The notes below the pieces were generated by a model. It did no database searches, was not told the DNA's origin, and saw only the letters and a list, made by a program, of their open reading frames with translations. Below are positions 39,949 through 50,836 of a stretch of 64,000 nt of DNA, piece after piece (the first letter of the stretch is position 1; the number at the start of each line of letters is the position of its first letter). Both the position numbers and the translations under genes were made by a program. This DNA is from Spirochaetaceae bacterium (GTDB lineage Bacteria > Spirochaetota > Spirochaetia > Treponematales > Treponemataceae), in the NCBI GenBank assembly GCA_017618015.1, contig JAFZVC010000025.1:166374-230373 (forward strand). The letters are read 5' to 3'.

Positions 39949-40215
39949 TTAGCCGATTACAGCAAGAATATCAGCAGCCTTAAGGATAAGGTGCTCTTCT
40001 CCGTCAATCTTAACGGCTGTACCAGCATATTTGTCGTACATAACGCGGTCGCCGGCTTTTACCTTGATTTTCTCTTTATCGTCTCCGACAGCGACAACAG
40101 TCGCAATCTGTGTTTTTTCCTGTGCTGTGTCCGGAATGATGATTCCGCTTGCAGTCTTTGACTCTGCTTTCTCGATCTTAACGAGAACTCTGTCCGCCAA
40201 TGGTGTAACCTTCAT
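39949..40215 (-). CDS. groES: co-chaperonin GroES
   Basis: [13 protein letters not shown]...[11 protein letters not shown]...G.V.AVG...D.V.Y.KY.GT..K.DGEE.LIL. No groEL is adjacent. Confidence 0.95.
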
Positions 40216-40249
40216 ATATTTCCTCCAAAAGGTTGAATTAAATTGGAAT

Positions 40250-40298
40250 TGTTCATTGTGAACACATTAAAGTTACGAAAAAAAAGCTCCATCGTCAA
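40250..40298 (-). promoter_or_regulatory. putative groES promoter with palindrome TGTTCA-N3-TGAACA at the predicted start site
   Basis: The minus strand reads TTGACG (40298-40293)-17 nt-TAACTT (40275-40270). The palindrome at 40250-40264 lies just downstream. No CIRCE (TTAGCACTC-N9-GAGTGCTAA) is present. Confidence 0.3.
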
Positions 40299-40507
40299 TA
40301 AAAATCGTCGTTGATGCTAACTCCTAACAGGAATTTGGCGGTTCCCGCCCGCACGATGTCGCGGGCGGTCGCTATGTTCCGGGTTCGCTTCCGCTCATTC
40401 CCACGCGGATAAACCGCATGGGAACAGCTTCGCTGCCCTTCACAGCGCTAACCGAGTTCATTTCGAAAAATTGTTTAAAAAAATTTTAGACTATACGTCG
40501 CTTCGCG

Positions 40508-40575
40508 CCGTTAGCGAGAGGAAATTTATTAAAATTCTGCGCTCACGCGCAGGACGCTATCATTCGGTGATAGTC
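40508..40575 (+). repeat. left copy of imperfect direct repeat bracketing the island
   Basis: CCGTTAGCGAGAGGAAATTTATTAAAATTCTGCGCTCACGCGCAGGACGCTATC... aligns without gaps to 46561-46628 with roughly 80 percent identity over the first ~55 nt (hand alignment). Confidence 0.7.
40557..40573. promoter_or_regulatory. candidate operator palindrome CTATCA-N5-TGATAG upstream of FliG-like/AAA+ genes
   Basis: Perfect 6-bp arms (CTATCAttcggTGATAG) 42 nt upstream of ATG 40615. The same half-sites and spacing occur at 42992-43008. Confidence 0.5.
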
Positions 40576-40614
40576 TGGTGCTTTACATTAATAGTGACAT
40601 TGAAGGAGTTGTGT

Positions 40615-41322
40615 ATGAGAAAAGAAAACACTGTTGAGACAAAGAAAGCGCAGGAATTGGTTTCAAAAACAATGGCTACTATCACCGAAGAAACCAAGAA
40701 TATCCTTATTGATTATATCCAGAACGGATATATTGAAAGCCTTTCAAAGGCAATTGCGTATCTCGGAATGAGCCCGGATGAAGCAAATATTCTTCTTGGA
40801 GATATGAGCGAAACTGTGAAAGAACGAATAACAAGCAATATCGCGCACTTTCAAAAACACGACGAAAGTGTCGTTTCTGAAGTTGAACATATTGTTCTGA
40901 CTCGTGGCAAAAAGCATGTTGCAGAAGAATACAAGGTAATCAAAGAGAACCTGCCATTTGCTGGAAAAGAGTTTGCTGAAAAATCCATACAGAATTTCCG
41001 AGCTAAAACACCCATTTTCCAGAAAACACTGGATGAATGTATTTTCACTTTTGAAGACATTAATCAGCTTGATGACCGTGAAATCCAAAAGATACTTTAT
41101 TGGACAGGACATAAGACACTGACTCTGGCTCTAAAAGGAGCTTCCAAAGAGCTTCGGAAAAGAATTTTCCGCAACAAACCCAAAAAAGAGGTGGCTATGC
41201 TCAAAGAAGCCATAGAGTTTTTGGGATCAGTTCGTGATTCGTGGATAGAAGAAGCTCAGGCAAAAATCGTAAAAAACGCTCTGCGTCTTGAAGCTGACGG
41301 TGAAATTGTTATTTGGAGATAA
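40615..41322 (+). CDS. FliG-like protein (middle + C-terminal domains only)
   Basis: The C-terminal half FEDINQLDDREIQKILYWTGHKTLTLALKGASKELRKRIFRN...EEAQAKIVKNALRLEADGEIVI follows the FliG_C signature (LDDR.IQ, LALKGAS.EL, EEAQ.KI, GEIVI). GAAGGAG RBS lies 6 nt before ATG 40615. At 235 aa it is about 100 aa shorter than canonical FliG. Confidence 0.65.
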   Translation: MRKENTVETKKAQELVSKTMATITEETKNILIDYIQNGYIESLSKAIAYLGMSPDEANILLGDMSETVKERITSNIAHFQKHDESVVSEVEHIVLTRGKKHVAEEYKVIKENLPFAGKEFAEKSIQNFRAKTPIFQKTLDECIFTFEDINQLDDREIQKILYWTGHKTLTLALKGASKELRKRIFRNKPKKEVAMLKEAIEFLGSVRDSWIEEAQAKIVKNALRLEADGEIVIWR

Positions 41323-41323
41323 T

Positions 41324-42982
41324 ATGGAAATCGGGATGAAAGAACCTAGAAAAATCAGATGGAATGTGCTGGCTGCAATTGATTATGTTTGCAAACAGAC
41401 AAAGTACAAAAAGCTAAAATACGAGAAAACTCCCCAAATGCAAAAAACACTGGAACGGCTTTGCTCTTATTTTGGCGGAATCAATGAGAATCAGGTTATT
41501 ATCCTCAGCGCAGTTCTTGACCTCCAGCTTTCGCATGACAAAATGACTAATATCAGCGATTTTTTCAATATGACCGCGCTCAGTTATCTTCAGCATAATA
41601 ATGAAATTGAGGATTTGGACGAGCGCGGTTTGTTGGATGTCGGGATAAACGAAGAAGGACATTCATACGATATCCCACAAATCGTAGTTACTGCAATTTT
41701 ACGTAACAGTGAAATAATCATTGAAAAGAAGGAGTTTGATCCAGTTGATTTCGTGAAAGAAGTGACTATGATCTTGGATAATAACTTGTACAATCAATTT
41801 AAAAAAAATAAAGAAAAAGTATATAAACTTGAAACGAAGAATTCAAAACAACCTTTTATAAAACATGTAAAAGCCCTTGTTCCGATACCATCCGATAGAA
41901 GTTGCTTTTATGCGATTTGCAGTGATTTTGTAGATGGTTTTGATACAAATTTGCAGCATGGTTTTCGTAGGGTATATGATAACAATGCAACTTCTAAAAT
42001 AAGAGCGATGCTCTCGGAGAGCCATGTGCTCTTAAAACATGGTCTTGTCGATTTTATCATAAAAGGCAATGTTATTGATTCAACTTTGACCCTGACGGAC
42101 AAAGCTAAAAAAATCTTTCTGGGTGAAAATGAATACCTCTATGAGCGGAAACTGAATGAGAAATCGCTTATCCTGCCGTCATCTATCGTTTCAAAGCATT
42201 TGTTCTACAGCCCGGAAAATCAAAAGCAGATTGATACGCTTTATTCCACTATAGAAAGTAAGAACCTTCTTTCTATACAAAACAGTCTGCGTTCTAAGGG
42301 GTTGTCGACAGGAATATGTATTCTTCTTTATGGAGCACCTGGTACTGGCAAGACAGAATCCGTGTATCAGATTGCAAAGGCAACGAACAGGCAAATCATT
42401 CATGTCGATATAAGTACGACAAAATCGTGTTGGTTTGGAGAAAGCGAAAAACTTATAGAACGTATATTTGTAGACTACAAGCGGTCATGTAAAAAACTTC
42501 TGGCGCACGGAAAAAGTGATATTCCTATTCTTCTTTTCAACGAGGCAGATGCAATCCTGCAAAAGCGCATGGAGTTTCATGGTGGTGGTGTTGAGAAAAC
42601 AGAGAATGCAATGCAGAACATCCTGCTTGAGAACATGGAAAAGTTTGAAGGCATTCTTATAGCGACGACAAACCTTGCCATAAATCTTGATGCAGCGTTT
42701 GAACGGCGGTTTCTGTTTAAAATAAAGTTCGACAATCCATCTGTGGAGGCAAAAACCGCGATTTGGAGATCGAAGCTTGAATGGCTGCCCGAAAATCAGG
42801 CTCAATTATTGGCGAACGAGTATAATTTTTCCGGTGGGGAGATTGATAATGTCGTCAGAAAGGCAACTATGGAAGAAATCCTTACGGGTTCAAGAGTTAC
42901 AATTAATCGGCTTGAAGAAATCTGCAATACGGAAAAACTGAATAATTCCGATTCCGGCAATAAAGTCGGGTTTCATGTATAA
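41324..42982 (+). CDS. classical-clade AAA+ ATPase with uncharacterised ~320-aa N-terminal region
   Basis: Walker A LYGAPGTGKTE, Walker B ILLFNEADA, sensor-1 IATTN, and SRH/Arg-finger region LDAAFERRF. The ATG lies 1 nt after the FliG-like stop. Confidence 0.8.
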   Translation: MEIGMKEPRKIRWNVLAAIDYVCKQTKYKKLKYEKTPQMQKTLERLCSYFGGINENQVIILSAVLDLQLSHDKMTNISDFFNMTALSYLQHNNEIEDLDERGLLDVGINEEGHSYDIPQIVVTAILRNSEIIIEKKEFDPVDFVKEVTMILDNNLYNQFKKNKEKVYKLETKNSKQPFIKHVKALVPIPSDRSCFYAICSDFVDGFDTNLQHGFRRVYDNNATSKIRAMLSESHVLLKHGLVDFIIKGNVIDSTLTLTDKAKKIFLGENEYLYERKLNEKSLILPSSIVSKHLFYSPENQKQIDTLYSTIESKNLLSIQNSLRSKGLSTGICILLYGAPGTGKTESVYQIAKATNRQIIHVDISTTKSCWFGESEKLIERIFVDYKRSCKKLLAHGKSDIPILLFNEADAILQKRMEFHGGGVEKTENAMQNILLENMEKFEGILIATTNLAINLDAAFERRFLFKIKFDNPSVEAKTAIWRSKLEWLPENQAQLLANEYNFSGGEIDNVVRKATMEEILTGSRVTINRLEEICNTEKLNNSDSGNKVGFHV

Positions 42983-42988
42983 AAAAAT

Positions 42989-43011
42989 AGCCTATCATTC
43001 CTTGATAGGCT
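42989..43011. promoter_or_regulatory. candidate operator / hairpin AGCCTATCA-N5-TGATAGGCT upstream of WYL regulator gene
   Basis: Perfect 9-bp arms. The element lies between the AAA+ stop (42982) and a TATAAT box (43017-43022) that precedes the WYL gene. No T-tract follows, so it is not a typical terminator. Confidence 0.5.
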
Positions 43012-43044
43012 GGGTGTATAATATTGATAATATGAGGAGGCTTT

Positions 43045-44046
43045 ATGGCGAAAGAAAGAGTGAAAAAACAGTTTTTGAACGGATATGAGCGTATCTTGAA
43101 AATCGATTATATGATTTCGAACTGGAATTATCCGAGCGTTGAGGATTTTGTAAACGAAACTGGAGCTTCCATTCCGACTATAAACCGCGACCTGCGGGAT
43201 TTGCGCCTGAAATTTGGTGCCGATGAGATATTGCAGTATGACAGGAACAAAAAGGGTTTTTATTACACGCTCCCGTCGTTCCGCATCCCGGCACTGCTCA
43301 CTTCCGAAAAGCAGATAATTGCCGCTCAGCTTATGTCAAATCTTTTGAATCTGATAAAAGACACTCCGGTTTACAAACAGGCAGTAGAGGTGTTTACTTC
43401 GCTTTCTAACGAGATTGATGAGGACACCAAGCTCAACGCTAAAAAGCTTTCTAACCGCATACTGTTTTTGGGAATGGAACCAGTTAAGATTGATGATGAG
43501 ATATGGACAAAGCTGGAGGAAGCCCTCGCGAATAATTATTATGTGAGCTTTAATTATAAAGGTCACAAGGAGAAGTTCAAAGTTCAACCATGGCAGCTTG
43601 TATACAGTCAAGGGATGTGGAGCTTGTATGCGTATAATCAGAATCCTGAAATAAAGAAAACACGCTTCTATAATCTTCCCGGAATGTACAATCTTGAGAT
43701 TGATAAGCAGAACACCTTTGAGTTGCCTGATGATTTTGAGTATACAAAACGCGCAAAAGGAAATTTCCGTCGGTACATTGGCAAAGAAACCTTGCAGTAC
43801 AAGATAAAGATTACTTCCGATAAAACGTTGGACTTCATAAAAACATACAACTGGGCTGAAGATCAGAAGTTCGAAAAACAGGATGATGGCAGTACGATAA
43901 TGACTTTCACGAGCAATCAGGACTGGCCGATTTTCGGCTGGGTTATGAGCCACGGAATGTACGCTCAACCGCTGGAACCTGAGTGGCTAGTGAACGAGTG
44001 GAAGAAAAACGTGAAAGAAATGGCGAAATTGGCGGAGAGGGTGTAG
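43045..44046 (+). CDS. WYL-domain transcriptional regulator (BrxR/CapW-like architecture)
   Basis: N-terminal wHTH (VEDFVNETGASIPTINRDLRDLRLKFG), YDRNKKGFYY, and WYL barrel (VSFNYKGHKEKFKVQPWQLVYSQGMWSLYAYN). GAGGAGG RBS. Confidence 0.8.
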   Translation: MAKERVKKQFLNGYERILKIDYMISNWNYPSVEDFVNETGASIPTINRDLRDLRLKFGADEILQYDRNKKGFYYTLPSFRIPALLTSEKQIIAAQLMSNLLNLIKDTPVYKQAVEVFTSLSNEIDEDTKLNAKKLSNRILFLGMEPVKIDDEIWTKLEEALANNYYVSFNYKGHKEKFKVQPWQLVYSQGMWSLYAYNQNPEIKKTRFYNLPGMYNLEIDKQNTFELPDDFEYTKRAKGNFRRYIGKETLQYKIKITSDKTLDFIKTYNWAEDQKFEKQDDGSTIMTFTSNQDWPIFGWVMSHGMYAQPLEPEWLVNEWKKNVKEMAKLAERV

Positions 44047-44075
44047 AAAAGCTAGGTTGATAAGGAGATTACGTT

Positions 44076-44756
44076 ATGCAATATACCAAAATTGAAAAGA
44101 TAATTAGAGATTCATTGTTAGATGTGAGAGACTTGTATACGAATAAACCAATAACATCGCATGTGATTTTTCCAAAATATTCTGACAACACAGAAAGATA
44201 TTCAGAGCAGGAACTAAAAAGCATCTTTTTGAGCAAGATTGAACAATCTGCATTTTATTATTCTGTCGAAACTCCATCCAGGAACAAATATCGGTTTGTT
44301 GAAAATGACGAGCCAAAAGTTTCATTCTGTGGAGAAGAATCAAAAGAGGTGTTTCAATCTTCTATGATAGATACGACTTTATATGATTCAAATAAAACTT
44401 TATTGAGCCATATAGAATTCAAATATGGACAAAGTTCCGTTTTTTCAATTCAAAAGGATTTTTTAAAGCTGATATGTGAATCACAAAATGTCAAGTACAA
44501 TTATTTTGCTCATTATCTTGGCAATTCAGACAATGGAACAAAAAAAGCGATTTTCAGTAAATATCGACAAGCATTGAATAATATTATGACTATCAATACA
44601 AACATTGATGATTTTGAGAGGAAGATTTCAAAGATCATCATTTTCGTGATGTTTGCAAGGTTGAATGAGATATATAGATTCTCTTTGAAAGATTTTGCTG
44701 AGAATCTCAACCTTGATGCTTATTTGGAAACAATCAGTCAGCCAACAGAACGGTAA
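44076..44756 (+). CDS. hypothetical protein with PD-(D/E)xK-like motif spacing
   Basis: AAGGAG RBS. D99-x14-E114-F-K116 (SSMIDTTLY...LSHIEFKYG) is preceded by an acidic helix (SEQELKS). Nuclease fold is inferred only. Confidence 0.45.
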   Translation: MQYTKIEKIIRDSLLDVRDLYTNKPITSHVIFPKYSDNTERYSEQELKSIFLSKIEQSAFYYSVETPSRNKYRFVENDEPKVSFCGEESKEVFQSSMIDTTLYDSNKTLLSHIEFKYGQSSVFSIQKDFLKLICESQNVKYNYFAHYLGNSDNGTKKAIFSKYRQALNNIMTINTNIDDFERKISKIIIFVMFARLNEIYRFSLKDFAENLNLDAYLETISQPTER

Positions 44757-44801
44757 AGAAGGAAAGCTAATCTGGCGAGTTTGATGAAGAGGGTGTAGAA
44801 T

Positions 44802-45419
44802 ATGAATAAGGAGATGAAAATGGAAGCGGCAAAGAATCAAGAATTAGATAAAAATCTTAATGATGAGGTTTTTGGTTACAATGGTAAAAAATATACTCTT
44901 TATGAATTACGATGTAGTGCAAATAATTATTTAACATCAGATCCTAAAGAATGCAGGCAAAAACTTAAGGAAAAATATGCAAAAGTTTATAATTGCATAG
45001 AACAAGAAGTTCCTCCTTCTATTCTGAAAGAAGTTTATAGTCTTGATTCAAATTTCAAAGAAATATGTGAACCAGTTTCTGGTTATACGAAGAATGATTA
45101 TTATGCCAGTAACTTAGGGAGAATTCGTCATTTTGGTAAGATTATGCTTCAGGATGATACGAATCTTAATGGATATCTTTATTTAAAAGATTATGCTGAA
45201 GGTAGCAACAAGCTATATAAATTTAAGTCAACAACTCCTGTATATACATTTATAGCCTGTGCTTTTTTTAAAGATTTCAATAACGGTACCGAGTTAAAGC
45301 ATATACATCATATTAATAATAATGGTTATGACTCTCGACCTGATAATTTAATTCCACTAACTCAGAAAGAACATTCAATTGCACATGGTCGAGTTATAAA
45401 AAATAGTAAGGAGGCGTAA
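44802..45419 (+). CDS. NUMOD4-HNH endonuclease
   Basis: YYASNLGRIRHFGK...NGYLY is NUMOD4-like. HIHHINNNGYDSRPDNLIPLTQKEHSIAH is the HNH_3 motif. The start could be ATG 44820, which has AAGGAG 6 nt upstream. Confidence 0.75.
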   Translation: MNKEMKMEAAKNQELDKNLNDEVFGYNGKKYTLYELRCSANNYLTSDPKECRQKLKEKYAKVYNCIEQEVPPSILKEVYSLDSNFKEICEPVSGYTKNDYYASNLGRIRHFGKIMLQDDTNLNGYLYLKDYAEGSNKLYKFKSTTPVYTFIACAFFKDFNNGTELKHIHHINNNGYDSRPDNLIPLTQKEHSIAHGRVIKNSKEA

Positions 45420-45420
45420 A

Positions 45421-46431
45421 ATGTTCGAATCAATTGGAAACAAAGATTTAAGACAGGTTTATAATGAACTTTGGGAAAATGAAGCAAATCGCCCTGCAGA
45501 GGTAATACCAACAAATCACTCGGAAGATTCTTTTCAATTTAAGATTAACAAAAAAAATGATATGTGTAATGAAATTGAAAGAATATTTGATCTTAATATA
45601 AAAGATTTTTCGAAAAAGTTTAAAGATGCCTGTTATTCACAGGGACAAGAATATAAGGAGATTTCTAAATTACATTCATCTGCTCTTTGTTCTTTACTTA
45701 TTTTTTCTGGGGTTTCCAACAATAATGAACTACGATTGACTCTCAATGGACAAGAATGTATTTTTTCTTCTGTTTTATTTGAGTATAAGAATAAGGTAAT
45801 AGGTTTTCCTTCGAATGTTGATGTTGTTTTAGTAGGGAAAAATAAGGATAAAACAAAGACAATAATTCTATTTCTAGAATCAAAATTTTCTGAATACCTA
45901 AGAGTTTCAAATATATTTGATGAACTTGGAAAAAGGTATATTACGAATGAGTATTCAAAAGAAATCTACACAGATGATTTTTTAAGAAATATAGGTATTC
46001 AATTGTGTAAAGATGAGAATTCCAAATTAAAAATCTTTTCAAAAAAAAGAAAAGGAAAAATGCGTGATTTCTATGGTTTCAAACCAATAGACGAAAACGA
46101 TGAAACTTATCTTGAGGGAATTAAACAAATGATTTCTCACTATATTGGTGTTGAACATTTTATTGAAGAAGATTTGGAAGATGATCGAAAAATAACTTAT
46201 TGTGCTAAAGACACAGAAGTCTATCTTGGAGAGATTCTTTTTGATTTCAAATTTAAGGACGCCAAAGAAAAGTTACGTAAATATTCTTCATATTACAAAA
46301 AACTAGCGAATAGGTTGAAAAAATTAAATCCAAACATTCATGTATTGGATGATATCTTAAAATATTCTTTATTTAAAGATTTAGATTTTGAAATAGCTGA
46401 TAAGGTAAAAAAATTTTACGGATTAGATTAA
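45421..46431 (+). CDS. hypothetical protein with PD-(D/E)xK-like motif spacing
   Basis: AGGAGG RBS, and the ATG lies 1 nt after the HNH stop. D134-x18-E153-S-K155 (PSNVDVVLVGK...ILFLESKFSE). Nuclease fold is inferred only. Confidence 0.45.
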   Translation: MFESIGNKDLRQVYNELWENEANRPAEVIPTNHSEDSFQFKINKKNDMCNEIERIFDLNIKDFSKKFKDACYSQGQEYKEISKLHSSALCSLLIFSGVSNNNELRLTLNGQECIFSSVLFEYKNKVIGFPSNVDVVLVGKNKDKTKTIILFLESKFSEYLRVSNIFDELGKRYITNEYSKEIYTDDFLRNIGIQLCKDENSKLKIFSKKRKGKMRDFYGFKPIDENDETYLEGIKQMISHYIGVEHFIEEDLEDDRKITYCAKDTEVYLGEILFDFKFKDAKEKLRKYSSYYKKLANRLKKLNPNIHVLDDILKYSLFKDLDFEIADKVKKFYGLD

Positions 46432-46465
46432 CAATAGAAATAAACATTTCTATCCCTGGTATTCG

Positions 46466-46504
46466 TCTCCGTTTATACTAGAAGTATGAGCGGAGATTTT
46501 TTTT
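46466..46504 (+). terminator. intrinsic terminator closing the WYL-nuclease operon
   Basis: 13-bp stem TCTCCGTTTATAC / GTATGAGCGGAGA (one G-U pair), 5-nt loop, then T8. Confidence 0.8.
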
Positions 46505-46560
46505 ACATAAAGCTCCGTAGCCTAATCACAAAGAAAACCGTTCTATGCATCACTTATGCT

Positions 46561-46628
46561 CCGCTAACGAGAGGAAATTTACTTAAATTCTGCACTCAGG
46601 CGCAGGACACTATCTCTCTATGATAATC
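46561..46628 (+). repeat. right copy of imperfect direct repeat bracketing the island
   Basis: CCGCTAACGAGAGGAAATTTACTTAAATTCTGCACTCAGGCGCAGGACACTATC... is the partner of 40508-40575. Confidence 0.7.
46610..46626. promoter_or_regulatory. degenerate third copy of the palindrome (CTATCT-N5-TGATAA)
   Basis: It occupies the same position within the right direct repeat as the left-copy palindrome. Both arms carry one change. Confidence 0.3.
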
Positions 46629-46656
46629 CTCCTGTTTATACTGTATAAACAGGAGG
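46628..46656 (+). promoter_or_regulatory. perfect 14-bp-arm palindrome that contains the RBS of ORF 46661
   Basis: CCTCCTGTTTATAC-T-GTATAAACAGGAGG. The right arm ends in AGGAGG 4 nt before ATG 46661. It is either an SD-sequestering hairpin or a dimer operator. Confidence 0.5.
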
Positions 46657-46660
46657 ATGT

Positions 46661-47029
46661 ATGGCAAATAGATTAGATATGGGTGAATACGCACTAGTAG
46701 AAAGATTCTACGTAGTTGAACCAATTGAAAGGCTTCGTAAAGTCGAACGAATCCAGAGTTTGTCTTTGGTAGAACGTTCTCATTTAATGCGGTTAGTGCA
46801 ATATTTGGAGCGAGATCGTGCCGAAATAATGGCAAAAAATCCGAATCCAAAGCATCTACCGTTTCCAAATGAAAAAAGCGTACAGCCACAAGAAGAAAAT
46901 CCAGCGTATATCCTTGATATCGGTAATCATAATAATGATGACATTTCTGGCGTAATTGTGGATATTGGTAATCATAATAATTATGACAAATCTGGTGTAA
47001 TCGTGGATATTGCCTGTCTAAGAAAATAA
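46661..47029 (+). CDS. hypothetical protein with internal 15-aa tandem repeat
   Basis: AGGAGG RBS 4 nt before the ATG. The C-terminus repeats DIGNHNN(D/Y)D(I/K)SGVIV. No family recognised, and coding status is uncertain. Confidence 0.35.
   Translation: MANRLDMGEYALVERFYVVEPIERLRKVERIQSLSLVERSHLMRLVQYLERDRAEIMAKNPNPKHLPFPNEKSVQPQEENPAYILDIGNHNNDDISGVIVDIGNHNNYDKSGVIVDIACLRK
46916..47011 (+). repeat. 45-bp tandem repeat, 2.1 copies, inside ORF 46661
   Basis: GATATCGGTAATCATAATAATGATGACATTTCTGGCGTAATTGTG versus GATATTGGTAATCATAATAATTATGACAAATCTGGTGTAATCGTG (39/45 identical by hand count), then GATATT. Confidence 0.8.
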
Positions 47030-47106
47030 CTCACTTTTTTAAGTTTCATACAAACGTGTTTAAGACAGCGGAGTTTACCGCTGGGCTAGGGCGTGGAGCA
47101 GTTGCG

Positions 47107-47190
47107 GACGTACATTAAGCGTCCATGCTTAATGTACTTAGCGGGTTTTGTAACAAAACCCGACAGTTTTTGCGCACATCCATGTGCGCA
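47107..47190 (-). repeat. three-hairpin GC-rich module, copy 2 (inverted)
   Basis: The reverse complement reads TGCGCACATggATGTGCGCA, CGGGTTTTG-tta-CAAAACCCG and GTACATTAAGC-atggac-GCTTAATGTAC. Order, linkers and H3 loop match copy 1. An extra outer stem GCGGACGTA/TACGTCCGC sits at 47104-47112 and 47202-47210. Confidence 0.7.
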
Positions 47191-47214
47191 GTTGAATGTC
47201 CTACGTCCGCAAGT

Positions 47215-47330
47215 CGGAACGACCGCGCGTTAGCGTATTTCGCAACAAGCACGGAGTGCGCCGTTTCCAGCTAGCTGCGGAAGGCCCGGCACGCCGTAGG
47301 CGGGCAGCCCCCATAATCATAATTAAATAA
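47215..47330 (-). repeat. modular GC-rich intergenic repeat, copy adjoining the three-hairpin module
   Basis: The reverse complement contains GCTAGCTGGAAACGGCGCACTCCGTGC. On the plus strand the block ends in GCAGCCCCCATAATCATAATT, reminiscent of CCCCCGCCTATCATATT in copy B. Confidence 0.45.
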
Positions 47331-47600
47331 AGAATCTGGTGGGGTGACGCGAAATGAACCATCGGGACAATAAAAGTGTCAAAATGAACCAGTAAAGGGG
47401 GTAAAAAGAAAGGGTGTGTCAAATTTACACAATAGAAGATAATAACAAAGAGTCAAAAAGTAAAGAAAAATCGATAAAAATCTGAGGATAAAAAATTAAG
47501 GTCGTATTTATACGATTTATCTGTCTGCTTTATAAGAAGATGGAAAGGGGTGCAGGTGCAAGGAAATTTTTGGAAATATTTTTTTAAGGATTTGTGATTT

Positions 47601-47616
47601 TGGCACGGTAATTGCA
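47601..47616 (+). promoter_or_regulatory. sigma-54 (RpoN) -24/-12 promoter for the RpoS-like sigma gene
   Basis: TGGCACGgtaaTTGCA matches the TGGCACG-N4-TTGCW consensus at every conserved position. It lies 39 nt upstream of ATG 47655, and GGAGG RBS sits at 47644-47648. Confidence 0.65.
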
Positions 47617-47654
47617 AGTATAGTTGTGTAACGGAAACGTAACGGAGGCAAAAA

Positions 47655-48494
47655 ATGGCTAATGATGATGTAATTCTTGCAATGTACCTTAAAGAGATCA
47701 ACAGAATCCCTCTCCTTTCACGTGATGAGGAAACCGATCTTGCAGCCCGCGCGAAAGCTGGTGACAAGATTGCAAAAGACAAGATTGTACGTGCGAATCT
47801 CCGCTTCGTTGTCAATGTAGCAAAAAAATATCAGAACCGTGGGCTTGATCTTACCGACCTTATCAGCGAGGGAAATATCGGGCTTCTTACTGCCATCGAC
47901 CGTTACGATGTGTCAAAAGGATACCATTTCATTTCTTATGCCGTATGGTGGATCCGCCAGGCAATTCTTAAGGCTATCTACGAGAAGTCAAGGATGATCA
48001 GGCTTCCGCTTAACCGCGCGAACGAGCTTGTTCAGATTGAGAAAGCTCGCAAATCTGTCGGTGGAAGCAAGACAGAAGAGCAGGAAATCCGCGAGATTGC
48101 AGAGATGCTCAACATGGACAAGACTCATGTCCGCGACCTTCTTAATATCGCAAGGGATATGATTTCGCTTGATAGCGCAGTGAATCCTGGCGATTCAGAC
48201 AGTTCATCGCTCGGAGAGTTCATTTCTGACTCACTTTACGATGATCCTGAAGAGCACGTTATGCAGACGAGCATGAGGGAAGATATAGACGCAGTTCTCG
48301 ACAGCCTTACGGAAAAAGAGGCTGAGGTTCTGCGCTGCCGCTTCGGACTCAACGGAAAAGAGTCGATGTCGCTTAAGGAAGTTGGCGATGTGTTCCATCT
48401 TACGAAAGAGAGAATCCGCCAGATCGAGAAGAAGGCTATCCGGCGCCTGCAGCATCCTACACGCATGAACAAGCTGGAAGCTTACGTAGCGTAA
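47655..48494 (+). CDS. sigma-70 family sigma factor, group-2 (RpoS-like), regions 1.2-4
   Basis: Region 2 DLISEGNIGLLTAIDRYDVSKGYHFISYAVWWIRQAI and region 4.2 SLKEVGDVFHLTKERIRQIEKKAIRRLQHP are RpoD/RpoS-type rather than FliA-type. It is only 279 aa. Confidence 0.85.
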   Translation: MANDDVILAMYLKEINRIPLLSRDEETDLAARAKAGDKIAKDKIVRANLRFVVNVAKKYQNRGLDLTDLISEGNIGLLTAIDRYDVSKGYHFISYAVWWIRQAILKAIYEKSRMIRLPLNRANELVQIEKARKSVGGSKTEEQEIREIAEMLNMDKTHVRDLLNIARDMISLDSAVNPGDSDSSSLGEFISDSLYDDPEEHVMQTSMREDIDAVLDSLTEKEAEVLRCRFGLNGKESMSLKEVGDVFHLTKERIRQIEKKAIRRLQHPTRMNKLEAYVA

Positions 48495-48607
48495 GCTTAG
48501 CAGGTCAGCGTTTGGGCGCGGGGCGCGCAAAGTGTGGCGGGCTTAAGTTTTGGCGCGGGTCGCGAGCCTAATTGCGGCGCGCGAAAGCTGGTTCGTGCTG
48601 GCTTTCG

Positions 48608-50836
48608 TCAGTTCCCAATCGTTTCTAAAATGTCCGCCCGCGCAAGTTCTAAGATCGCTTTGTCACGCACCGGGTCCGCTATTCCGAGCGTTATATAGCC
48701 CGACTGTTGGATGCCGTTCACGTCGCCAGGACCGCGCAACTTAAGGTCTTCTTCGCCAATATAAAAGCCGTCGGTGCTTTCGTGAAGCACTTTAAGACGC
48801 GATTTTCCAAGTTCAGTAAGTTTCTCACTGTACACAAGAAAACAGAATGATGCGGCAGTTCCTCGTCCTACGCGACCGCGCAGCTGATGAAGTGCCGCAA
48901 GCCCGAATCGTTCCGCATGCTCTATGACCATGCATGTCGCGTTCGGAACATCCACGCCAACTTCAACGACACTCGTCGCTACAAGGACTTGCGTTTCGCC
49001 TTTGCGGAACGATTCCAGAACGGCGATTTGGTCAGCCTCATCCGTTTTTGAGTGGATAAGGGCGCATTTGAACTCCGGGTAGACTTTTTGCGAAAGGAAA
49101 CTGAACATCGCTTCTGCTGATTTTAGCGTACTTGCAGTTCCGCCAGTCTGCTGTGTGTCTCGGTTCTGTGCGCTGGTTCCGCCGAGGTTTTCGGCTGTTT
49201 CATCCGCGCCAGACGCGTTGCTGTCAGCGTCGTCTGCAAGGCTTTCTATAAGCGGATACACAAAATAAGCTTGATGTCCGTTCCTAAGCTCCTGCCTGAC
49301 AGCCTCGTACACACGAGACTCGTTTCCCTCTTTTGTAAGGTATGTTTTTATTGGCTGGCGGCCGGCGGGCATTGATTTTATTATGGATATGTCCAGATCA
49401 CCAAAAATAGTGTGCGCGAGTGTCTGCGGAATAGGGGTCGCGCTCATAAGCAAAAAGTCGGGAGAGCGGGGCATTATGCCGTTCGCGAGTTTTTCGCGCT
49501 GTACTACGGATTGTCGCCCTTTGTCGAGAACCGCGCTCCGCTGGACGACACCAAAGCGGTGCTGCTCGTCTATTATCACAAAGCGAAGGTCGTGGTACAA
49601 AACTGATTGCGAGAATACGGCATGCGTGCCTATTACTATGTCGATATCGCCGTTTTTAAGAGCGGATAGGAGCGGCGTTCGTCCAGAAGCCTTGAGATTG
49701 CCGGTAAGAAACGCGACTTTTATGCCGAGCGGTTCAAGCAGTTTTGCCGCGTTGTTTGCGTGTTGACGCGCCAGTATTTCTGTTGGTGCCATCATGACGC
49801 ACTGCCCGCCGTAGTCTATTGTGCGGAGCGCGGCAAAAAATGCAGCAAGCGTCTTTCCGGAGCCTACATCGCCCTGTAAAAGCCGCGACATATGGAACCG
49901 CGCGGGAACTGCGTTATCAGCACTAATATCCGGCTGGTTGTTCGACAAGTCTATGTCAAAGTTCATCTCGTAAATGACTTTTTTTTGGTCTTCTGTAAGT
50001 TCAAACGGCAGCCGGTCGAGCAACTGCTTTTGTCGCGGAGAAAGCGTTTCTTCAAACGTCTTTTTGCTGCCATCAGCTGTTTTCATCGCTTCGGCGGCTG
50101 TTTTCCTGTGTTCCTGCGAACGCCGAAGAATCGTCTCCTGAAAGTGGTAAAGCTCCTCGTATATAAGCGAATATTTCGCCTTTTCAGCCATCTCTATGTT
50201 GCGCGGTTCGTGCATAGAAAAAACAGCTTCTTTTTTCAGCATAAGTCCGCGTTTTTCTATGATGCTTTCAGGCAGCTCGTTCTCTATCCCTCGGCAATAC
50301 TCTTTCAGTGCTTTGCCAATCACCTTGCGAAGCTGCGTTTGCGAAAGCCCTGCCGTAAGCGGATATATCGGGAAAACGGCGGAACCAGGAACCGGCTTGT
50401 CAAGAAACTCGTCTATAGATGCGGATTTCGCAAGACATGTCGCTTCGAACGCTGATGTCTGAATCTCGCCATATCGTGGTGCAAATCTTCCTGTGACAGC
50501 TATAACTGACCCGACCGGAAGCGATTTTTCCAAAAAAGAGCGGTTAAAGCAAACAAGCGCTGCAGAAGCTGTTCCATCATCAATTATTATTTTAAGCGTG
50601 CGCATCCTGCCGAACCCGAACCAGTCATGACGGAGTACTTGCGCTATCGTGTGAACTTTTGACGTGCTGTTCCAAGCGGAGAGCGGAATTTTCCGTGTCC
50701 TGTCCTCCCACGTTTTTGGCCAGTAAGAAAGAAGATCTGAAACTGTAAAAATGCCGAGCCTTGCAAGAAGTTTTTCCAAAGAAGGACCGACTCCTGCTAT
50801 CGTGCTGACTGGCGTTCCGATATCCTGTAGCTTCAT
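48608..50836 (-). CDS. recG: ATP-dependent DNA helicase RecG
   Basis: Wedge/OB N-terminus, motif I GDVGSGKT, DEQHRFGV, and QLRGRVGRG followed by the TRG motif region. Confidence 0.9.
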   Translation of the reverse strand: MKLQDIGTPVSTIAGVGPSLEKLLARLGIFTVSDLLSYWPKTWEDRTRKIPLSAWNSTSKVHTIAQVLRHDWFGFGRMRTLKIIIDDGTASAALVCFNRSFLEKSLPVGSVIAVTGRFAPRYGEIQTSAFEATCLAKSASIDEFLDKPVPGSAVFPIYPLTAGLSQTQLRKVIGKALKEYCRGIENELPESIIEKRGLMLKKEAVFSMHEPRNIEMAEKAKYSLIYEELYHFQETILRRSQEHRKTAAEAMKTADGSKKTFEETLSPRQKQLLDRLPFELTEDQKKVIYEMNFDIDLSNNQPDISADNAVPARFHMSRLLQGDVGSGKTLAAFFAALRTIDYGGQCVMMAPTEILARQHANNAAKLLEPLGIKVAFLTGNLKASGRTPLLSALKNGDIDIVIGTHAVFSQSVLYHDLRFVIIDEQHRFGVVQRSAVLDKGRQSVVQREKLANGIMPRSPDFLLMSATPIPQTLAHTIFGDLDISIIKSMPAGRQPIKTYLTKEGNESRVYEAVRQELRNGHQAYFVYPLIESLADDADSNASGADETAENLGGTSAQNRDTQQTGGTASTLKSAEAMFSFLSQKVYPEFKCALIHSKTDEADQIAVLESFRKGETQVLVATSVVEVGVDVPNATCMVIEHAERFGLAALHQLRGRVGRGTAASFCFLVYSEKLTELGKSRLKVLHESTDGFYIGEEDLKLRGPGDVNGIQQSGYITLGIADPVRDKAILELARADILETIGN

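Follow-up and report, generated by a model that had tools for sequence, protein, structure and literature searches.

In a genome of the Spirochaetaceae, the gene for a short sigma-70-family factor lies directly behind an element, TGGCACGGTAATTGCA, that is probably a true sigma-54 (RpoN) promoter; transcription of the gene would start mainly there and depend on an enhancer, with an Rrp2-type activator acting on a pair of conserved dyads further upstream. The locus was analysed within a stretch of 64,000 nucleotides (hereafter the window; Spirochaetaceae bacterium, GenBank assembly GCA_017618015.1, contig JAFZVC010000025.1, positions 166,374 to 230,373), which corresponds to C73:166374-230373 of a draft genome of 3.28 Mb in 119 contigs that is 94 % complete. 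The sigma factor, which is 279 amino acids (aa) long, belongs to the family of TDE0937 of Treponema denticola and TP1012 of Treponema pallidum. While an original prediction, made from the window alone, had read the locus as a sigma-54 promoter driving an RpoS-like gene, the comparisons given here point to a sister branch of the RpoS system. As judged from these comparisons, a sigma-54-to-sigma cascade is very likely at this locus, and the organism, a Treponema of the gut or rumen, very probably uses a conserved sigma-54 promoter with a two-site enhancer to turn on a second sigma-factor gene.

The -24/-12 element and its conservation

Within the element, the GG and GC doublets are exactly 10 nt apart and lie inside the extended consensus TGGCACG-N4-TTGCW; based on direct reading of the sequence, the ATG of the sigma gene (47655) follows 38 nt downstream. 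At sigma-54 promoters the start lies ~12 nt past the -12 GC, and this standard geometry gives a predicted 5' untranslated region (UTR) of ~28 nt, which would begin (G)UGUAACGGAAA. All positions originally given proved correct on re-reading, and TGGCACGGTAATTGCA, the GGAGG ribosome-binding site, the ATG, the 279-aa open reading frame (ORF) and two pairs of upstream repeats are present as described.

TGGCACGGTAATTGCA is the sole match in the window to TGGCAC-N5-TTGCW with at most one mismatch, and shuffled windows average 2.29 such matches. In a 26-nt position weight matrix (PWM) made from 60 such promoters, with its information concentrated in the TTGGCA and TTGC blocks that hold the GG and GC, the element scores 28.6 bits, the second highest value among 6.56 million genome positions. 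A genome scan for further sites of this form, proposed at the outset as a check, gave four exact matches, three of which are intergenic, co-oriented with and just upstream of genes, i.e. two genes of the sigma-70 family and one for an Hsp20 protein. Among orthologs of the 279-aa factor, the -24/-12 element occurs 45-120 nt before the start codon in all 30 of the loci fetched, which come from six families of the order, with a single deviation beside the -12 GC in three of them, and the GG-N10-GC frame is kept in all 30 while the flanks diverge. By the same scan, the element is found in 17 of 22 loci from named spirochaete metagenome-assembled genomes (MAGs), as opposed to none of the 58 loci that served as outgroup, which come from Gemmatimonadota, Bacteroidota and other groups and encode sigma factors 43-47 % identical. 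The named relatives of the organism are Treponema sp. MAGs, Rectinema and Breznakiella. The significance of the promoter thus derives from position, with three of the four exact matches upstream of genes, and from conservation (30/30 versus 0/58), rather than from the rarity of the match. At the level of sequence, the element has every property of a functional sigma-54 promoter.

It is very improbable that the motif is no working sigma-54 promoter, and that transcripts of the gene arise instead at a sigma-70-type promoter, e.g. at 47416-47443, or by read-through, with some other constraint behind the conservation. A sigma-70-like match does exist at 47416-47443, though it is weak (9/12) and overlaps the second of the dyads described below; the T. 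denticola group has AG at positions -25/-24 of its sites, and in Borrelia a longer transcript of rpoS depends on sigma-70. However, such an explanation has to contend with the retention of the GG-N10-GC frame amid diverging flanks, its absence from the outgroups and the presence of the same element at three other conserved genes. Moreover, no sigma-70-like promoter was found on the plus strand between 47444 and the ATG, which agrees with the original prediction, and a terminator-like hairpin upstream would insulate the sigma gene from read-through.

The PWM scan of the genome also outlines what else sigma-54 might control, since only six of the 6.56 million positions reach at least 20 bits. 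Three of these precede the other conserved genes (Table 1), namely a gene for a further, 274-aa sigma factor (hereafter the C115 sigma gene), whose promoter is kept in 29/30 ortholog loci; hsp20, whose promoter is kept in 28/30; and a 296-aa ORF, whose promoter is kept in 18/21. The predicted hsp20 transcript and the predicted transcript of the 279-aa factor would start almost alike, with TAGTT(A)GTGTAACGGAAA. Upstream of its promoter, the C115 sigma gene has a different, GTATACA-rich element, which partly resembles an element in loci of family f17. The 296-aa protein evolves fast, has a C-terminal helix-turn-helix (HTH), belongs to no Pfam family and is restricted to this family of genomes. 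It was considered as a third, divergent sigma factor, a candidacy that was not borne out by weak Pfam region-3/HTH matches (E=0.05-0.16) or by hhalign probabilities of <10 % to both sigma profiles. Of the two remaining sites, at C85:62594 and C2:6920, either may be a chance match, and the latter might be the promoter of a small RNA. The sigma-54 regulon thereby appears to be tiny, with half of it made up of sigma-factor genes, and two alternative sigma factors are predicted to stand under sigma-54 here because the C115 gene, an RpoS ortholog, has a sigma-54 promoter of its own.

Identity of the sigma factor

The 279-aa protein contains Pfam regions 1.2, 2, 3 and 4, without region 1.1, and a separate RpoD is encoded by an open frame of ~598 aa on contig C74. 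With these regions, the separate RpoD and its kinship to RpoD, the protein has the sequence features of a group 2 sigma factor (RpoD-like, non-primary). All 41 relatives (41/41) encode an ortholog, 43-95 % identical. Scores against RpoS models stay below the cut-offs, at 260.4 bits versus 378.7 for TIGR02394 and 245.9 versus 394 for NF004207; the best NCBIfam matches are RpoD models, also below their curated cut-offs, and the protein is not RpoH either (167 bits versus a cut-off of 323). TDE0937, which was located in a T. denticola-like genome via a published reverse-transcription PCR (RT-PCR) primer (PMC2965109), is an ortholog with 59 % identity.

Phylogenetic placement, another check proposed at the outset, puts the protein in a clade (support 100/97) together with TDE0937, a T. 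pallidum-like TP1012 homologue and the sigma genes that adjoin Rrp2-type genes in families f17 and f30. This clade excludes Borrelia-like RpoS and is sister to RpoD (93/84). The TP1012-like homologue has the promoter TGGCATGATATTTGCT; a survey of sigma-54 promoters in small genomes, made by Studholme and Buck in 2000, reportedly included T. pallidum, and the TP1012 site may be mentioned there.

The original prediction had taken the gene to be RpoS-like and the circuit to be the same as the RpoN-RpoS cascade of Borrelia. On the present evidence, it is improbable that the gene corresponds in Treponema to rpoS of Borrelia and acts in the same Rrp2-RpoN-RpoS cascade. The layout is certainly shared, in that a sigma-54 promoter lies directly 5' of a short sigma gene and both an Rrp2 ortholog and RpoN are present, and sequence identity separates the candidates little, Borrelia-like RpoS being 33 % identical to the 279-aa factor and 35 % to the C115 factor. 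However, besides falling outside the clade of the 279-aa factor, Borrelia-like RpoS falls inside the C115 clade (84/84), and forcing it into the former costs 22.8 log-likelihood units (approximately unbiased test, p=0.038), a value to be read with the facts that the choice of the tested group followed inspection of the tree and that Borrelia-like RpoS forms a long branch. The model scores given above speak against RpoS as well, as does synteny, since a FlgJ-type (rod-binding) gene directly upstream, in the order flgJ-promoter-sigma, is common to Borrelia-like rpoS and a C115-type gene. In the Borrelia-like genome, which served as a positive control of the promoter scan, a 267-aa sigma gene lies behind TGGCATGATTTTTGCA. 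As read from trees and gene order, the 279-aa factor is a sister of Borrelia RpoS and not its ortholog, and the locus represents a parallel branch.

Upstream dyads and the candidate activator

Upstream of the promoter are two dyads, 40 nt apart, within a candidate upstream activating sequence of ~110 nt (Table 1), which stands out as nearly invariant when the locus is aligned with the two closest genomes. Dyad 1 unites the first copy of GTGTCAAA with the second copy of AAATGAACCA, has its centre ~244 nt upstream of the predicted start, and recurs in genus and family relatives with the consensus GTGTCAAAATGA(a/c)(a/c)CA. No other site of the genome matches the ideal dyad GTGTCAANTTGACAC as well as dyad 2 does, with its site at 47416 and one mismatch. 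Two dyads, 40-41 nt apart and 110-265 nt upstream of the -24 element, recur throughout the genus and in much of the family, with the consensus GTGTCAAAATGAaaCA and the ideal form GTGTCAA-N-TTGACAC. The half-site is present in 22 of 30 upstream regions of this sigma family (44 sites in all) versus one of 30 upstream regions of the C115-type gene in the same genomes, and dyads of the same type precede the hsp20 promoter both here and in the majority of the family. The dyad pair thus appears to form conserved, enhancer-like sites for an activator.

Both repeats had originally been proposed as regulator sites. GTGTCAAA occurs exactly at 47376-47383 and 47416-47423, and this pair has held up at the sequence level, its copies being conserved as parts of the two dyads in the genus and beyond. 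AAATGAACCA, which occurs exactly at 47352-47361 and 47382-47391, has not; one copy is the right half of dyad 1 and the other an extra, poorly conserved one. Its repetition is unremarkable in itself, because the window is rich in exact 10-mers that recur within 100 nt (30 observed versus 7.75 in block shuffles). A genome scan for the 15-bp dyad gave 0, 1 and 2 matches at 0, 1 and 2 mismatches, fewer than expected by chance, and therefore reveals neither additional targets nor autoregulation.

The original prediction presupposed an rpoN gene and NtrC-type activators in the genome, and both are present. There is one rpoN, on contig C96, encoding 453 aa with PF00309, PF04963 and PF04552, i.e. the activator-interacting, core-binding and DNA-binding domains, and the RpoN box ARRTVAKYR. 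Three enhancer-binding proteins (EBPs), defined by PF00158, have the loops GSFTGA, GAFTDA and GSYTDA, all variants of GAFTGA. The first (EBP1; L002, on contig C85) is a response regulator of REC-AAA+-HTH_8 architecture, encoded immediately downstream of a histidine kinase with HisKA, HATPase_c and a weak PAS domain; the second (L003) is a GAF-AAA+-HTH_8 protein, and the third (L004) has no HTH. In the EBP tree, an Rrp2 clade (support 99.7) includes EBP1, TDE1969 of the T. denticola-like genome, a T. pallidum-like protein and Borrelia-like Rrp2, and the HTH motif NK(T/S)K.A..L.IGRKTLHRKL is kept throughout. The same clade also holds the sole EBP of genome G525, which has only this type of sigma gene, with two dyads 41 nt apart, as well as four EBPs of families f17 and f30 whose genes lie directly upstream of this sigma type, in the order kinase-EBP-sigma-54 promoter-sigma. 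The intergenic regions of these f17/f30 loci contain dyads, e.g. TAGTGTCAAAATGAAACAG, and in G525 and G444 the promoter and dyads are found at hsp20 too. With moderate confidence, the dyads may be assigned to the Rrp2-type activator, because the only EBP of G525 is of this type and because in f17/f30 the gene for such a protein adjoins the sigma gene with dyads between the two.

The same observations bear on a second possibility, in which the promoter is real and another EBP, whether the GAF-type L003 or the HTH-less L004, activates it, the dyads binding some other regulator, e.g. a repressor or a stress-sensing factor. Three EBPs are encoded, after all, and the dyad half-site contains TTGACA, which could serve other proteins; in addition, induction of TDE0937 by oxygen is hard to reconcile with a kinase activated anaerobically, as detailed below. 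Nevertheless, this possibility is unlikely, as G525, with its single, Rrp2-type EBP, keeps promoter and dyads at both the sigma gene and hsp20, the f17/f30 arrangement couples an Rrp2-type gene to the sigma gene, and the GAF-type EBP is confined, among the genomes examined, to the three with both sigma genes. By that distribution, which covers three genomes only, the GAF-type EBP may be a candidate for the activator of the C115-type gene. In another genome (L149, G039:C1), the sigma-54 promoter of a C115-type gene follows 145 nt after the end of an EBP gene with the HTH motif GISRKTIINKIK, and this layout may mean that the branch has an activator of its own in some genomes.

With the Rrp2-type activator as the preferred candidate, the following mechanism is proposed. 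RNA polymerase with sigma-54 would bind the -24 GG and the -12 GC and stay closed, until an NtrC-class activator, most likely the Hk2/Rrp2-type regulator EBP1, binds the two dyads ~200-245 nt upstream. The activator would then oligomerize, loop over the A+T-rich spacer and open the promoter with ATP, so that transcription would start near 47627. The group-2-like product would most probably direct a general or proteotoxic stress programme, and the sigma gene would be co-regulated with hsp20 via the same promoter type and dyads.

Table 1. Mapped features of the sigma-factor locus and of the other predicted sigma-54 sites. Positions without a contig refer to the window; those with G000 refer to contigs of the same draft genome.
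Feature	Position	Strand	Remarks
Terminator-like hairpin followed by T run	47142-47162	+	Right flank of the upstream island
Extra AAATGAACCA copy	47352-47361	+	AAATGAGCCA in L010, absent in L011; probably not functional
Candidate upstream activating sequence, ~110 nt, with dyads	47372-47480	.	Nearly invariant in L009, L010 and L011; both flanks diverge
Dyad 1, GTGTCAAAATGAACCA	47376-47391	.	Invariant in L009, L010 and L011 while flanks diverge
Dyad 2, TGTGTCAAATTTACACA, imperfect palindrome	47415-47431	.	40 nt from dyad 1
Third half-site, GAGTCAAA	47450-47457	.	Reads GTGTCAAA in L010
A+T-rich spacer with A-tracts, between candidate enhancer and promoter	47458-47600	.	Read from sequence; predicted looping/bending role
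Sigma-54 promoter core, TGGCACGGTAATTGCA	47601-47616	+	-24 GG 47602-47603; -12 GC 47614-47615
Predicted transcription start	47626-47628	+	12 nt past the C of the -12 GC, by standard sigma-54 geometry
Ribosome-binding site GGAGG	47644-47648	+	6 nt before ATG; ACGGAGG kept in L010 and L011
Sigma-70-family gene, 279 aa	47655-48494	+	ORF translation, Pfam, orthologs, trees
C115 (second) sigma gene, 274 aa	G000:C115:44339-45160	-	L124; promoter C115:45222-45237, TGGCACGGTTTTTGCA, 34.8 bits
hsp20 gene	G000:C68:10930-11379	-	L191; promoter C68:11556-11571, 24.0 bits, ~190 nt upstream
296-aa ORF	G000:C85:25287-26174	-	L237; promoter ~C85:26221-26246, 21.3 bits, 46 nt before ORF
Intragenic -24/-12 match	G000:C85:62594-62619	+	24.6 bits; inside long ORF
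Orphan -24/-12 match	G000:C2:6920-6945	+	20.2 bits; intergenic, no ORF >=90 aa downstream

As for the wider neighbourhood, groES adjoins this sigma gene directly and divergently in other spirochaetes (L155, L156 and L119). Here, an A+T-rich island of ~6.5 kb (40470-47030) separates the two genes, and the dyads lie on the sigma side; since the insertion left them beside the sigma gene, they are more likely to act on that gene than on groES. A GC-rich stretch with several perfect hairpins, located at 47100-47330 between island and candidate enhancer, gave no tRNA, transfer-messenger RNA (tmRNA) or Rfam match at gathering thresholds (ARAGORN on 40000-50000; Rfam on 42000-50000). The stretch was also considered as a minus-strand tmRNA gene whose -35 box would be GTGTCAAA, which reads TTGACA on that strand, and this was rejected given the null ARAGORN and Rfam results and the lack of a -10 box at the right spacing.

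A stress circuit and its known relatives

In T. denticola, TDE0937 is induced 2.8-fold by heat, 21.8-fold by oxygen and 14-fold by osmotic downshift (McHardy et al. 2010, PMC2965109), and the Hsp20 gene TDE1029 and TDE1028 are co-induced with it. That report, the only one within the literature searched that names TDE0937, proposes it as a stress regulator and makes no mention of a sigma-54 promoter, an enhancer or a link to Rrp2 (PMC2965109). The hsp20 gene of the T. denticola-like genome has the promoter TGGCATATAAATTGCT (L232), and the published TDE1028 RT-PCR primers (PMC3914990) sit in the hsp20 leader, from ~2 nt before the predicted sigma-54 start; based on this, TDE1028 is likely to be hsp20 5' UTR rather than a gene of its own. 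The searchable literature describes no targets of sigma-54 or of Hpk2/Rrp2 for Treponema, and as recently as 2025 the Rrp2 of T. denticola was said to remain 'unstudied' (PMC12070737).

Several observations count against a sigma-54 promoter activated by an Rrp2-type protein through the dyads. As regards the promoter, the four exact genome matches compare with ~2.7 expected from composition, i.e. there is no enrichment, and one of the six high-scoring PWM sites is intragenic. The motif is missing from the Brachyspira-like and f39 homologues, and the sigma-54 wiring is therefore not phylum-wide. Most genomes of the T. denticola group have TAGCA in place of TGGCA at the -24 element. As regards the activator, the loop of EBP1 reads GSFTGA and not GAFTGA, and the T. 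pallidum-like locus has the promoter without clear dyads. Since T. denticola Hpk2 autophosphorylates better under anaerobic conditions (PMC12070737), induction of TDE0937 by oxygen via Hpk2-Rrp2 is a poor fit. Finally, the identities of genomes G050, G128 and G512 are presumed ones, based on gene positions and primer matches. Within the T. denticola group, TAGCA(T/C) is found at both sigma promoters (L119, L120, L122 and L123 for the TDE0937 type; L186 for the TDE0070 type), hsp20 keeps TGGCAT, and one sister genome (L121) has TGGCAT at the -24 element; TAGCA(T/C) may reflect a lineage-specific weakening of both cascades.

A broader picture is tentative as a whole, and its parts may well not all hold together. 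In it, sigma-54 would be the master switch of the treponeme sigma hierarchy, with a regulon of about four promoters (two sigma genes, hsp20 and the gene for the HTH protein). An oxygen/heme-sensing Hk2/Rrp2 pair, working via a new dyad enhancer, would drive the TDE0937/TP1012 sigma factor and hsp20 as an ancestral spirochaete stress circuit that still exists in the treponemes of periodontitis and syphilis, and Borrelia would have kept only the RpoS branch and lost the enhancer. If so, loss of the enhancer would explain why rpoS activation in Borrelia is enhancer-independent and assisted by BosR.

Whatever the fate of that picture, the locus suggests a testable wiring that leads from a kinase to an Rrp2-type activator, a dyad enhancer, a sigma-54 promoter and, finally, a stress sigma factor and Hsp20, as well as a candidate regulatory route for TP1012 in T. 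pallidum, an organism uncultivable until recently. It also provides a frame for the evolution of RpoN-RpoS control in Borrelia, with two parallel sigma-54-to-sigma branches of which Borrelia retained one. The circuit would be a variant of a known one and not a new principle, but control of the TDE0937/TP1012 family was previously undescribed.

Among known systems, the closest is the Hk2-Rrp2-RpoN-RpoS cascade of Borrelia burgdorferi, in which rpoS is transcribed from a -24/-12 promoter (PMC3037356, PMC2940757). As in that cascade, a sigma-54 promoter lies directly before a short sigma-70-family gene, in the same form in the Borrelia-like genome (TGGCATGATTTTTGCA), and the candidate activator is an Rrp2-type REC-AAA+-HTH protein with an adjacent kinase. 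The differences are threefold. First, the target here is a paralogous sister of the TDE0937/TP1012 clade rather than the RpoS ortholog (BB0771). Second, a minimal rpoS promoter suffices in Borrelia, where Rrp2 is enhancer-independent and BosR is needed too (PMC3037356), whereas the conserved two-dyad candidate enhancer upstream of the present promoter argues for enhancer dependence. Third, the C115 sigma gene and hsp20 are also predicted sigma-54 targets here, whereas Borrelia-like hsp20 is without such a promoter. The locus of TDE0937 in T. denticola resembles the present one in having an orthologous gene, the same type of upstream element and a co-induced Hsp20 partner in TDE1029, and it differs in its mostly TAGCA form of the -24 element.

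Promoters of the NtrC-dependent enhancer type are exemplified by enterobacterial glnAp2, and the NtrC site is TGCACC-N5-GGTGCA. The present locus shares with these the consensus -24/-12 element, two dyad sites on roughly the same helical face ~100-250 nt upstream, and a candidate activator of REC-AAA+-Fis-type-HTH architecture with a partner kinase. Unlike them, it has the dyad GTGTCAA-N-TTGACAC, its target is a sigma factor rather than a nitrogen-assimilation gene, and the signal is possibly oxygen or proteotoxic stress. Sigma-54 and heat shock are also linked in enterobacteria, where ibpB has a sigma-54 promoter. There, action of sigma-54 through sigma-32 has been proposed without experimental support (PMC3162934). 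In common with that link, a small heat-shock gene and a stress sigma gene would both be under sigma-54 in the present genome; however, the lineage is unrelated, the sigma factor is not RpoH, and the activator is a different one.

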